From Desulfobacterales bacterium (GTDB lineage Bacteria; Desulfobacterota; Desulfobacteria; Desulfobacterales; SURF-7), in assembly GCA_030145525.1 (NCBI GenBank), contig JAQYVL010000037.1, positions 1 through 49,977 of the forward strand: a stretch of 49,977 nt of DNA, read 5' to 3'. Below, in pieces: positions 2,541-46,573 of this stretch. The translations under genes and the position numbers were made by a program. The number at the start of each line of letters is the position of its first letter. Position 1 is the stretch's first letter. The notes under the pieces are model-generated. The model was not told where the DNA came from, searched no databases, and saw nothing but the letters and a program-made list of their open reading frames with translations.

Positions 2541-2563
2541 TACATAAAAAATGAAAGATATAG

Positions 2564-2790
2564 CTTCTGACAGTCTCGTAAAAAGTCAAAACTCTGATGG
2601 CAAAGCAAAAAGTTCCCCGCTTTTAGCGGGGTTTCCGCTTCGCTCCAACAAGCTATTCCAGGCGCGCAAATCCCGAGGAATGAGTAGTAGTTAACCTACT
2701 CACGCCTATCGGCTACCGTTGCGCTTCGCTTAGCGGTACTGACGAGGGATGAAGCGCAACACAGAAATTGGACTTTTTACGAAGTCATCA
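2564..2790 (-). repeat. Intergenic palindromic MITE/REP-like element, copy A (long form)
   Basis: Terminal inverted repeats are CGTAAAAAGTC (2577..2587) and GACTTTTTACG (2771..2781). Internal perfect hairpins are GTTGCGCTTC...GAAGCGCAAC and CCCCGC-TTTTA-GCGGGG. The reverse complement aligns by eye along the whole of copy B at 32042..32195. Confidence 0.75.
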
Positions 2791-2794
2791 GCTT

Positions 2795-3448
2795 CTAGTA
2801 GTTCCAGCCGAGAAGACCAAAGGCGATTATATTCATAGCCGCCGCCAACGAATAGATCGCGCAAACGGCATAAATCTTCATCGCGTTCGTCTTTAGACCG
2901 ATAACCAGCATCGGGCTCAGGAAAAGAGGGAAATATCCGGCAAAAAAGATGGGCAGTACACCCGCCATTGACAATTTCCACCAGGGATATTCCCAGACCA
3001 GGTGCCCACCGATATTCAGCAGGCACTCAACAAATACGCAGAAGGACGCGTAGGAAAAGGACCAGAACAATCGGTTCGGAATTCCCAGGATTTTTGCATC
3101 CCTGTCCCTGGACAGCGTATTGTAATAAATGATTCCGGCAATAGAAAACATGAACATGATTTCGATGTTCCAGCCCACAGTCGTGCGTAGCGCTGTTTCT
3201 CCAGGAGCGGTCCAGAAGGCTGAATGCCCGGATAAATGGAATATCCAGCCGTTTATGGTTTCAAAAAGGAAATCCACACCGAAAAGCGTTGCACCTGCAA
3301 AAACAGGGTCCCAGTTTCCCGATTCCCTTGCCTTCTGAATTTCGGAAGTGTAGATATAAAAAACGATTGCCAGCAGGGGAAAAACATACCACTTGATCGT
3401 TGAAAGATCTCTGAGGCCTACCAACGCAAGCTCGGATGCAGATGTCAT
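2795..3448 (-). CDS. Multi-pass membrane protein of unknown function
   Basis: The ORF is hydrophobic and Trp/Phe-rich. A strong GAGGAGG RBS sits 5 nt before the internal ATG at 3448 (MTSASELALVG...), so this start is preferred over the ORF-track start at 3538. Confidence 0.6.
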   Translation of the reverse strand: MTSASELALVGLRDLSTIKWYVFPLLAIVFYIYTSEIQKARESGNWDPVFAGATLFGVDFLFETINGWIFHLSGHSAFWTAPGETALRTTVGWNIEIMFMFSIAGIIYYNTLSRDRDAKILGIPNRLFWSFSYASFCVFVECLLNIGGHLVWEYPWWKLSMAGVLPIFFAGYFPLFLSPMLVIGLKTNAMKIYAVCAIYSLAAAMNIIAFGLLGWNY

Positions 3449-3824
3449 TACAACCTCCTCATGGGTGCAGGGCAAGAAAATCGGCACTGATGGACTTTCT
3501 TGTTCTATCTCCATTACGGACCAATAAGATATTCTCACGTATTCAATTCATATTTTGAAATAAATGTCAAAACAAGAGGGAGTGATGATAGGGTATATGG
3601 AGATCGTGGAGCTTGTTAACCAGATCGCTACATGGATAAGAGTATTTAATTGTAAAAATTGAAACTTGACCTGGCAGTCTTTGTAATTCGTTTTTGTTTT
3701 TCTTTACAGATCAGATGAAAAATCCAATACTTTCGATCCAACAGCATCAGGGCAAATTTTAAAGAACACAGATTTTGAGGAAGGCATTTCCCTTTTAGTT
3801 TTTCTGTTTCAGGTGTGTTAGCAA

Positions 3825-14292: not shown

Positions 14293-14744
14293 AGCAGGAT
14301 TTTGAACCGATTATCGTCTCGTTTTGCTGCAATTTCTGAGGGTATACGGCAGCGGACCTGGCAGGTTCGATGAGGCTTAGCTATCCTACAAGTATTAAAA
14401 TTATTCGAGTTCCATGTACCGGCAAGGTAGATGTTATCCATATTCTCAGATCCTTTGAAAAAGGAGCGGATGGAGTTTATGTGGTCGGATGTATGGAAGG
14501 AGACTGCCATTTTAATAAAGGCAATTTTAGAGCCCGAAAACGGGTGGAACAGGCTCAAAAACTGCTGGAAGATATCGGAATCGGTGGGGAACGGGTAAAG
14601 ATGTACAACCTTTCTTCGAGTGAAGCGCCGCTTTTCGTAGAATATGCCAAAGAGATGTCAGAGAAGATTCTTGAACTTGGACCCAATCCGATTAAGGAGG
14701 CAAAAAAAAGTTTACGCGGGCAAAATGAGGCTGTCTCCGGCTGA
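14289..14744 (+). CDS. mvhD: MvhD/FlpD-like [2Fe-2S] protein with selenocysteine at TGA 14337..14339
   Basis: The ATG at 14289 overlaps the hdrA stop (ATGA). The frame is continuous with ORF 14370..14744 through one TGA. The translation [27 protein letters not shown]...IIRVPCTGKVD matches the MvhD motif CCNWCxYxxADxAG, with Sec at the Cys position. Confidence 0.8.
14353..14369 (+). promoter_or_regulatory. Candidate bacterial SECIS hairpin for the mvhD UGA
   Basis: CGGACC-UGGCA-GGUUCG forms a 6-bp stem with a 5-nt loop containing GG. It starts 13 nt after the UGA. Confidence 0.4.
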
Positions 14745-25844: not shown

Positions 25845-25920
25845 TGGGGCGTCGTCAAGTGGTAAAGACACAGGATTTTGATTCCTGCATTCGGAGGTTC
25901 GAATCCTCCCGCCCCAGCCA
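25845..25920 (+). tRNA. tRNA-Gln (anticodon UUG)
   Basis: A cloverleaf is readable by eye. The acceptor stem is UGGGGCG/CGCCCCA, the anticodon stem is CAGGA/UCCUG with loop UUUUGAU, and the T-arm is GGAGG-UUCGAAU-CCUCC. The discriminator is G, CCA is encoded, and the sequence closely resembles E. coli tRNA-Gln. Confidence 0.93.
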
Positions 25921-31072: not shown

Positions 31073-32041
31073 ATGCCAGATGAAGGTGGTTTTACCATCA
31101 AGACTGTTGAGGCTGATTCTGAAAAACGTCTGGATTCTCTTATTGCTGATCAAATTTCCTGCTGTTCCAGAAAACTCGCCGCATCCCTAATACGCAAAGG
31201 TCTGATTCGAGTTTCAGGGTCGGTCAAAAAGCCCGGATACAGGATACGTGCGGGCGATATTATTGAAGGGGTTATCCCGGAACCTGAAACAATTTCGTTT
31301 CAACCAGAGCCGGTTGAGCTTGACATCCTCTTTGAGGATGAGCACATCATAATACTGAACAAGGCACCTGGAATTGTCGTACACCCGTCGCCGGGTCACT
31401 ACACCGGGACGATCGTGAACGGCCTTCTGTACCATTGTCCTGATCTTGAGGGTATTGGAGGTGAAATCCGGCCGGGAATCGTACACAGGCTGGACAAGGA
31501 TACTTCCGGTGTTTTGGCTGTTGCCAAAAGTCATGCAGCCCACCTCCATCTTGCAGCCCAGTTTAAATCAAGAAATATAACAAAAAGTTATCTGGCTATC
31601 GTATATGGCGATTTTCAGGAAGATTCAGGTGTCATAAACCTGCCCATTGGCCGCCACCCAAGCGATCGTAAGAAAATGTCAATTCACAGCCGGAAAACAA
31701 GGGTAGCTGAGACTCATTGGAAAATTAGAGAACGTTTTGAAGGGATAACGCTTCTTGACCTTGAAATTAAGACGGGTAGAACACATCAAATAAGAGTGCA
31801 TTGTACAGCCATTCAGCATCCTATTGTTGGTGATCCGGTCTATGGGAGCCGGCGGGCGGCACAGAGAATCCGTCTGCTAAAAGACAGGGGCGCACTGTTA
31901 AAAAATATTTCTCGTCAAATGCTTCATGCCCGGCGTCTTTCAATAAAACATCCCATTACGGATCAAAGTATCTCCTTTGAAGCGCCTCTTCCTGAAGATA
32001 TGGTTGAACTTATATGCAATTTGAAAGAGTTCAAGAGATGA
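31073..32041 (+). CDS. rluD: 23S rRNA pseudouridine synthase, RluA/RluD family
   Basis: It has an S4-like N-terminus, the catalytic motif HRLDKDTSGVL, and GRTHQIRVH. Confidence 0.9.
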   Translation: MPDEGGFTIKTVEADSEKRLDSLIADQISCCSRKLAASLIRKGLIRVSGSVKKPGYRIRAGDIIEGVIPEPETISFQPEPVELDILFEDEHIIILNKAPGIVVHPSPGHYTGTIVNGLLYHCPDLEGIGGEIRPGIVHRLDKDTSGVLAVAKSHAAHLHLAAQFKSRNITKSYLAIVYGDFQEDSGVINLPIGRHPSDRKKMSIHSRKTRVAETHWKIRERFEGITLLDLEIKTGRTHQIRVHCTAIQHPIVGDPVYGSRRAAQRIRLLKDRGALLKNISRQMLHARRLSIKHPITDQSISFEAPLPEDMVELICNLKEFKR

Positions 32042-32195
32042 TGGCTTCCTAAAAAGTCCAATTTCTGTGTTGCGCTTCATCCTTCGTCACTGCGGAGTAA
32101 GCTAACTACGCCTCATTCCTCAGGATTTGCGCGCCTTGAACTTGAACTTTTTTCTTTGCCATCAATATTTTGACTTCTTACGAAACGGTCAAGAG
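32042..32195 (+). repeat. Intergenic palindromic MITE/REP-like element, copy B (short form)
   Basis: It aligns end to end with the reverse complement of copy A (TAAAAAGTCCAATTTCTGTGTTGCGCTTCATCC..., CATTCCTCAGGATTTGCGCGCCTTGAA, ...CTTTGCCATCA..TTTTGACTTCTTACGA). It fills the gap between the convergent rluD and rnfB genes. Confidence 0.75.
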
Positions 32196-32212
32196 ATCTA
32201 CATAATCACTTT

Positions 32213-44639: not shown

Positions 44640-44760
44640 AAAAATCGAACACTATGTTGTAAGACACAATACTAAATATATTCCTGCGGTTGAACTCCTC
44701 ACTCCGCCGCGACCTTAGACCCGATTGAAGGTTTTGAAACCAGTTCTAATCAGTAAAAAA
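44640..44760 (+). repeat. Partial, divergent copy (D) of the intergenic repeat family
   Basis: It shares ATATATTCCTGCGGTTGAA...CGCCGCGACCTTAGACCCGA with copy C (ATATATTCCTCTGGTTGAA...CGCGCGCCTTGATCTCGA). The boundaries are uncertain. Confidence 0.45.
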
Positions 44761-46429: not shown

Positions 46430-46573
46430 AGTGTCCATCCATTAAAGGCTATTTTGTCCGATATCTGCGTTGCACTCAAATCTCAATCCTCAAAATATAT
46501 CGATATATTCCTCTGGTTGAAATTTTCGCGCGCCTTGATCTCGAACAAAATATCTCATTACTGGACAGACACT
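46430..46573 (+). repeat. Intergenic palindromic element, copy C
   Basis: It is a long imperfect palindrome. AGTGTCCATCCA (left) pairs with TGGACAGACACT (right), and ATTTTGTCCGATATC pairs with GATCTCGAACAAAAT. It shares the core ATTCCTCnGG..TTTCGCGCGCCTTGA with copies A and B. It lies between the convergent UPF0210 and vapC genes. Confidence 0.65.

Follow-up and report, generated by a model that had tools for sequence, protein, structure and literature searches.

The two elements A and B of the window, by which we mean the whole contig of 49,977 nucleotides analysed here, are most probably MITEs (we put this at roughly 0.88), that is, non-coding, non-autonomous elements whose ends are those of an IS1182-like insertion sequence 1.9 kb in length. 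A sequence-only reading of the window had described four palindromic copies, A to D, as one family of either REP/BIME-type or non-autonomous mobile elements, and the second of these readings is supported: A and B have inverted ends and target duplications, one site is empty in congeners, and there is an autonomous relative that matches them in ends and footprint. Family 1, as we call the family of A and B, shows the features of MITEs: small size, no ORF of its own, inverted repeats, duplications, dispersed copies, presence or absence at a site and an autonomous relative. The kind of element is ordinary; less ordinary are its spread through an order and beyond, its modular long forms, a target that is like two abutted element ends and a core common to families with unrelated ends.

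Copy number and anatomy of family 1

An HMM built from 62 family-1 copies was run on the 3.17-Mb draft genome of the window (G000; 308 contigs, 43% G+C, 91% completeness; the window is contig C37). The 194 matches merged into 183 elements, 113 of which cover the whole model, and together the elements make up 27 kb or 0.9% of the genome. The genome-wide search proposed in the sequence-only reading hence returned copies far above chance, with the consensus TGATGGCTTCGTAAAAAGTCCAATTTCTGYGTTGCGCTTCATCCCTCGTCACTGCGGAGTAGGCTAACTACGCCTCATTCCTCGGGATTTGCGCGCCTTGAACTTGAACTTTTTTCTTTGCCATCAGAATTTTGACTTTTTACGAGACTGTCA. Terminal inverted repeats of 20 nt, TGAYGGCTTCGTAAAAAGTC on the left and GACTTTTTACGAGNNNRTCA on the right, were read from 99 full copies. 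A and B have these ends and form one family; C and D, which had been counted in the same family with common terminal repeats, end differently and belong to two other MITE families (Table 1).

Table 1. Features of the window and modules of family 1, with elements listed under their most probable assignment
Feature	Position in window	Length	Strand	Remarks
Element A, family-1 MITE, long form	2568..2790	223 nt	minus	nhmmer match, aligned with 50 long forms
GCTTC target-site duplication, left of A	2563..2567		.	read from sequence, repeated at 2791-2795
GCTTC target-site duplication, right of A	2791..2795		.	
Terminator-like hairpin CCCCGCTAAAAGCGGGG, then AACTTTTTGC	2615..2631		minus	inside M5 of A; terminator scan
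Element B, family-1 MITE, short form	32039..32191	153 nt	plus	
AGAGA target-site duplication, left of B	32034..32038		.	
AGAGA target-site duplication, right of B	32192..32196		.	
TGA stop of RluD-like pseudouridine synthase ORF (31073..32041)	32039..32041		plus	first three bases of MITE B
Element C, second MITE family	46430..46573	144 nt	plus	ends AGTGYCCRTCCATTAATGG; 13 aligned copies in genome
Element D, third MITE family, right half only	~44665..44748		plus	12 aligned copies in genome
Module M1		23 nt		
Module M2		34 nt		reverse complement of M3, opposite side of apex
Module M3		23-32 nt		reverse complement of M2, opposite side of apex
Module M4		21 nt		
Module M5		37 nt		ends CCCGCTAAAAGCGGGG and a T run

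Bases 1-127 of the consensus form one long interrupted hairpin, in which an inner right end of degenerate sequence (GAACTTTTTTCTTTGCCATC) is the partner of the left end, and the last 26 nt contain the outer right end. Element B is laid out in the same way: its bases 1-127 are the palindromic unit, with the left end paired to the inner right end, and the outer right end sits in the additional 26 nt. The 153-nt backbone looks like a 127-nt unit with an extra outer end. A 127-nt form, found at loci L075 and L078 (genomes G217 and G250), stops where the 153-nt form has its inner right end, and the ACGA motif is gone from this inner end in the genome of the window.

Full copies are 151-255 nt long and fall mainly into classes of 153 nt (37 copies), 185-186 nt (27), 222 nt (6), 176 nt (5) and 209-210 nt (4), the long forms consisting of the 153-nt backbone and up to five optional modules. 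Since M2 and M3 are reverse complements that flank the apex, they are the two arms of a longer hairpin. Element A is made up of the backbone, M2 (34 nt, on the 5' side of the apex hairpin) and M5 (37 nt), and its RNA fold reaches -91 kcal/mol (z = -6.4). The earlier distinction of a long and a short form therefore stands, A being the backbone of B with M2 and M5 inserted, as does the description of B as the reverse complement of A, with three collinear blocks that are 93, 81 and 87% complementary. The longest forms measure 453 and 802 nt and consist of neighbouring or nested elements or contain an unrelated ORF. They encode no nuclease, and a GIY-YIG mini-transposon was rejected. Two minimal derivatives of 47 and 65 nt (G000 C137:2377-2423 and C73:4691-4755) contain little beyond the two ends. 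Four independent half elements (G000 C229:908, C288:958, C297:6245 and C10:2938) have the same breakpoint, just before the hairpin apex and after GTATAATTGC, which suggests a palindrome-centred deletion.

The ORFs that run over family-1 elements are only spurious extensions of adjoining frames, and the elements have no coding frame of their own. The reverse complement of the left end, TTTTACGAAGCCATC, encodes FYEAI (for example at window positions 32039-32058 on the minus strand); spurious ORFs that start in elements have ...WTFYEAIKN-like peptides (for example in G000 C28, ~14340-14620), and such ORFs may stand in protein databases as hypothetical proteins. In the draft genome, 33 of the 616 contig ends lie at most 300 nt from a family-1 element, where ~16 would be expected, and the family contributes to the fragmentation of the assembly. 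For annotation, this means that a family that occupies ~1% of the genome and occurs in half of the sampled Desulfobacterales breaks assemblies, seeds spurious ORFs and rewrites gene 3' ends, as in the case of the stop codon of the RluD-like gene.

Target sites and gene context

A check for target-site duplications, suggested along with the first description, found GCTTC on both sides of A and AGAGA on both sides of B. Among the 99 full copies with flanks, exact duplications of 4 bp were found in 55 and of 5 bp in 18, the duplication is preceded by A in 72 and followed by T in 79, and the target of the family-1 MITEs reads A-ANNT-T (hyphens mark the borders of the duplicated bases). The empty-site consensus is (t c)A-annT-T(a a) for the MITEs and (t n)A-AnaT-T(g a) for the insertion sequence described below. 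Insertion would accordingly be directed to a short AT-rich symmetric target, (tc)A-ANNT-T(ga), the central 4-5 bp of which are duplicated. The element's terminal T and A vary together with the flanking bases in ~12 of 16 informative (deviating) copies, and the true duplication may therefore be longer: from the sequences, it may be read as 4-5 bp, the element ending in TGA...TCA, or as 6-7 bp, with GA...TC as the element ends.

Read from its consensus, the target is a short symmetric AT-rich motif that resembles two abutted element ends (TCA-NNNN-TGA), and this likeness may explain the tandem insertions. Tandem elements are common and lie head to tail with exactly one duplication length between them (...ATCA NNNN TGATGG...). 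Examples are G000 C263:2211-2363 and loci L021, L049 and L027, and in L191 the 1.9-kb insertion sequence is also 4 nt away from a MITE end. An extended hairpin at the target was rejected, as the complementarity around empty sites is no greater than the make-up of the alignment columns predicts; the target is thus a consensus sequence and not a structure.

When the joined flanks of B were compared with congeners, the site proved to be uninterrupted in two of them (G374 and G393), reading TTCAAGAGAC(C/T)TCGATAA or, over a longer stretch, ...GAGTTCAAGAGAC(C/T)TCGATAATCA...; locus A is not syntenic in these genomes. Both congeners are also ~500 nt longer between the RluD-like gene and the RnfB fusion. 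This segment, which includes a small minus-strand ORF of ~60 aa, is missing beside MITE B (window 32197-32212 compared with L145, G374:C53, reverse strand, ~bases 360-900).

Element A is neighboured by a sulfatase gene and an unassigned ORF of 247 aa, and element B by the genes for an RluD-type pseudouridine synthase and an RnfB-GltD fusion. The minus-strand ORF 2795..3538 has its stop codon at 2795-2797, one base of which also belongs to the right GCTTC of A. Element B provides the stop codon of the synthase, whose older stop, TAA, is found 9 nt past the insertion, and the protein is shorter by two residues. The position between convergent gene ends that had been described for three of the four copies holds for A, B and C in the window, but genome-wide it is no property of the family. 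Crude ORF-based calls gave 135 elements with two neighbours, of which 85 lie in co-directional, 28 in divergent and 22 in convergent gaps; among background gaps, 1,757 are co-directional, 359 divergent and 361 convergent, and the 22 of 135 elements are no enrichment over the 15% of convergent gaps. Neither is there an orientation bias, with 92 elements on the plus and 91 on the minus strand, and of the elements in co-directional gaps, 38 have the orientation of the genes and 47 the opposite one.

These figures bear on the view, raised in the sequence-only reading, that the elements are REP/BIME/REPIN-type palindromes, spread by a RAYT (IS200/IS605-type) tyrosine transposase and serving the host as terminators or mRNA stabilisers. 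Family 1 does share with such palindromes that its elements are intergenic, palindromic and mosaic, with optional modules, that they often lie at gene 3' ends and that many carrier genomes have no matching DDE transposase. The likeness extends to enterobacterial BIMEs and REPs and the pneumococcal SPRITE, with their mosaic modules and many gene-end copies, to which the rho-independent-terminator-like M5 may be added. REPs, REPINs and BIMEs, however, have no target duplication and no inverted transposon ends and depend on a tyrosine transposase. Family 1 has duplications of 4-5 bp and 20-nt inverted ends identical to those of a DDE insertion sequence, which are features of a DDE-mobilised MITE, and it shows neither an excess in convergent gaps nor a preferred orientation. 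We therefore give next to no credence to the REP/BIME explanation, which is not supported as the nature of the elements.

A different matter is whether the MITEs are secondarily used by their host, above all the M5 copies as intrinsic terminators or 3'-end stabilisers, which would be compatible with the MITE reading. The median distance of the elements is 14 nt to the adjacent gene 3' end versus 63 nt to the 5' end, and 30 of the 99 full copies supply or abut a stop codon (11 supply that of a crude ORF and another 19 lie at most 12 nt from one). M5 is a GC hairpin with a T run, which in A faces the minus-strand gene ending at 2795, and the purely Watson-Crick compensation described below would preserve a working hairpin in both orientations. 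On the other hand, the only terminator-like site in the window elements is M5 of copy A and the short form B was not flagged; of the ~10 full copies that have M5, only 7 have it facing the upstream gene, which is not significant; and 28 of the 135 elements lie in divergent gaps. The scan for promoters in the elements found no site above chance. Closeness to stop codons is real, but an AT-rich target together with selection against promoter hits leads one to expect it as well and is enough to explain it, with no termination role needed. Host use is in our opinion unlikely, and the intergenic, stop-adjacent placement of the MITEs would fit an AT-rich target and the selective removal of harmful insertions.

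An IS1182-like insertion sequence with the same ends

The search for a cognate transposase gave an IS1182-like candidate in other genomes and none in this assembly. In genome G363 (contig C1, record JAGXLR010000124), 4 nt from the end of a family-1 MITE, lies an element of 1,906 bp, TGATGGCACTGTAAAAAGTC...GACTTTTTACGAGTCCATCA, with the ends TGATGGCACTGTAAAAAGTCAG and ATGACTTTTTACGAGTCCATCA and one ORF of 580 aa, in whose product Pfam domains DUF772, DDE_Tnp_1_6 and DDE_Tnp_1 were found. The best NCBIfam match of this transposase is IS1182 (NF033551; residues 39-525, model positions 30-487 of 488), and since its score of 151.8 bits is below the NCBI cut-off of 270, assignment to the family is approximate. 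Members of the IS1182 family in ISfinder are typically ~1.3-1.95 kb in size with short inverted repeats, a range that includes the candidate parent with its median of 1,901 bp and inverted ends of ~20 nt.

Relatives of the transposase numbered 159 in species-representative genomes, and 80 of the 159 loci were kept. A complete element (median 1,901 bp) is present at 68 of the 80, with the ends TGATGGNCTCGTAAAAAGTC and GACTTTTTACGAGNCCATCA. Exact duplications are of 4 bp in 33 of 63 and of 5 bp in 5 of 63, with A at -5 in 58 and T at +5 in 61 of the 63. All 68 complete insertion sequences are in Desulfobacterales genomes other than that of the window, and they have the ends, the duplication and the target of the MITE. 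Among the carriers are Desulfosarcina widdelii PP31, whose genome is complete, Desulfatitalea alkaliphila and several long-read assemblies, which have 5-12 copies, and in G217 (record CAXXLK01) insertion sequence and MITEs have the same GACGGT end variant. Judging from ends and footprint, the DDE transposase of the insertion sequence would bind the 20-nt inverted ends and move the MITE in trans. Within the insertion sequence, no match to the interior of the family-1 MITE was found; the interior does not derive from it and is a long imperfect hairpin that compensatory changes keep palindromic.

Close relatives of the transposase, with 54-69% identity, were also seen on short contigs (L198, L205, L208, L221, L223, L246, L253 and L257) of genomes labelled Gammaproteobacteria, Nitrospirota, Nitrospinaceae, Oscillospiraceae, Elusimicrobiota, Bacteroidales, Saccharibacteria and Paceibacterota; their presence there reflects broad horizontal transfer or else errors of binning. 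In addition, MITE families with different interiors and the same IS1182-like ends (GATGNNNTCGTAAAAAG) are found at L012:4190-4384, L054:3650-3810 and G000 C218 ~3370-3479, and from their ends several non-autonomous families seem to be served by one transposase type.

The earlier statement that the window has no transposase is correct, and the whole assembly also lacks one of this type. Within the taxonomic family of the window organism, G353 has an intact, G404 a broken and G232 a fragmentary transposase, and the scanned genomes G000, G374, G393, G311 and G263 have none. Despite this absence, 15-56 matches to the 20-nt end were found in G374, G393, G311 and G263, and several MITE-rich genomes likewise have no transposase of this kind. 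In the genome of the window, mean pairwise identity is 83.5% for the 153-nt copies and 93% for the 185-nt subfamily, and no two full copies are identical, from which we infer that the amplification of family 1 was not recent. Given the mean identity of 83.5%, the want of identical copies and an assembly with no matching transposase, the copies are old and probably immobile relics.

Other candidates for the parent were rejected. In the draft genome, distant inverted pairs of ends enclose ordinary genes only, solo ends belong to internally deleted or half elements, and comparison of the genome with itself gave no long transposase-encoding repeats. In MITE-rich genomes, matches to rve and ISNCY_2 transposases, as well as DDE_Tnp_1 matches other than the 600-aa type, are not flanked by family-1 ends. 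ISDol1, presumably an ISNCY element with 6-7-bp repeats, was taken as a possible lead; the ISNCY_1 model gave a weak partial match only, and the same search exposed the IS1182-like candidate. In low-copy closed genomes, the exact 20-nt end marked nothing but MITE copies, and the plasmid collection gave no match.

With one mismatch allowed, 197 of the 401 sampled Desulfobacterales genomes have the 20-nt end, in 88 of 174 genera and with up to 300 matches per genome. At the level of the phylum, 63 of 301 sampled genomes have it, and a control with the reversed sequence gave 0-1 per genome. An exact 29-mer of the core occurs at at least 67 loci in ~20 genomes. In the literature searched, family 1 is undescribed and we found nothing on MITEs in Desulfobacterales or Desulfobacterota; a 2024 review of prokaryotic MITEs (PMC10969869) mentions neither IS1182 nor Desulfo- taxa, and neither there nor in the literature searched are IS1182-derived MITEs reported. 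For transposon biology, the family would thus add a link between a large MITE group and a transposase that is IS1182-like and uses a symmetric target of defined sequence.

Like members of the IS1182 family such as staphylococcal IS1272, the insertion sequence has a single DDE transposase with N-terminal DUF772 and DDE_Tnp_1_6, a length of 1.9 kb and short inverted ends, and differs in its score of 151.8 bits, under the family cut-off of 270. IS1272 targets inverted repeats (PMC5678879), and according to Siguier et al., as cited in the same paper, some members of the family target palindromic sequences, to which the symmetric target consensus found here may be compared. However, IS1272 replaces its target stem-loop and leaves no duplication (PMC5678879), in contrast to the regular duplications of 4-5 bp described above. 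Among known MITEs, family 1 resembles the Correia elements of Neisseria, ERIC of enterobacteria and RUP of pneumococcus, which are 100-250 bp long with inverted ends and short duplications and occur in hundreds of intergenic copies, in long and short forms that make long hairpins when transcribed (see also PMC10969869). It differs from them in ends, parent family and target (TA for Correia), in its five optional modules and in having a core common to other-ended families. Moreover, Correia, ERIC and RUP belong to one genus or family each, whereas family 1 is found in half of the sampled genomes of its order and a fifth of those of its phylum.

The internal hairpin and the shared core

The long imperfect hairpin predicted for each element is confirmed for family 1 by fold z-scores of -3.4 to -6.4 and by compensatory changes. 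In an alignment of 51 diverse copies from many genomes, 95.7% of the cells of 23 consensus pairs are paired, and 123 cells are changed on both sides versus 40 ± 5 in shuffles, none of 500 of which reaches 123. This shuffle ignores the kinship of copies; when partners are slid, a control that accounts for relatedness, pairing falls to 36-54%. Among the compensated stems are ATCCC/GGGAT, ATCTC/GAGAT, ATCAT/ATGAT, ATCTTGTAT/ATACAAGAT and GCGC/GCGC versus GAGC/GCTC, with GTAG/CTAC, ATAG/CTAT and CGTAC/GTACG at the apex. Furthermore, changes in the left end are matched by changes in the inner right end (GATGGC/GCCATC versus GACGGC/GCCGTC). One-sided changes of the G-U type are rare compared with double changes, so that compensation is almost purely Watson-Crick. 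Because G-U changes are few and there is no strand bias, we infer a constraint on the two strands of the DNA alike, or on transcripts from either of them, and not on a one-strand RNA gene.

Folds and covariation of this strength are also what one would see in a structured RNA family, that of a small RNA gene or cis-regulatory element that keeps its hairpin for a function as RNA and was dispersed secondarily. However, no Rfam 15 family matched the elements at gathering score, the best match over copy B having E = 0.71, and a match to a known structured RNA, which the sequence-only reading had allowed for, is thereby not found. The equal numbers on both strands, the 38 elements that run with the gene versus 47 opposite to it in co-directional gaps and the lack of promoter-like sites above chance speak against an RNA gene as well, and Watson-Crick compensation with few G-U intermediates is better explained by a constraint on both strands of DNA. 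We consider a structured RNA very improbable. In the window, the sole Rfam match at gathering score is a tRNA gene at 25845-25917.

The two other families found in the window have ends of their own. Sister copies of C have duplications of ~4 bp such as ACCT and AGGT, and the window copy shows none that is recognisable. Full copies of the D family end TAGAACTGGTTTCAAAA...TTTTGAAACCAGTTCTA and by eye are apparently flanked by TA, which would suggest a parent of IS630 type. C and D have a 53-nt apex block in common (87% identity; score 59 versus 16.7 ± 2.3 when shuffled), and family 1 and C have GTCCRATWTCTGCGTTGSGCT (score 27 versus 16.2 ± 2.3) and, by eye, also GCGCGCCTTGAWCTYGAAC in common. 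The core that had been claimed for all copies is therefore upheld for C and D and for family 1 and C, but not for family 1 and D, whose comparison was not significant. Since C and D come from different families, it is also unlikely that they frame the ACT/DUF711 gene pair as a cassette.

Why the interior hairpin is so well conserved, and why its core recurs in families with other ends, is left unexplained by a plain MITE model. A tentative idea, which we regard as doubtful, is that the persisting unit is the hairpin core and not the transposon ends, the core being a DNA hairpin or cruciform module that was repeatedly captured by different ends. It is based on the three families with unrelated ends (IS1182-like; AGTGYCC with ~4-bp duplications; TAGAACTGG, apparently TA-flanked) and common core blocks, on the core being kept palindromic by almost purely Watson-Crick compensatory changes and on the IS1182-like ends that also flank quite different cores. 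A Watson-Crick-compensated core in families with unrelated ends offers a handle on what maintains the interiors of MITEs. A possible reason for its capture is that transposases of the IS1182 type seek palindromes; another possible one is that the core gives the host a signal at gene ends that works in either orientation.
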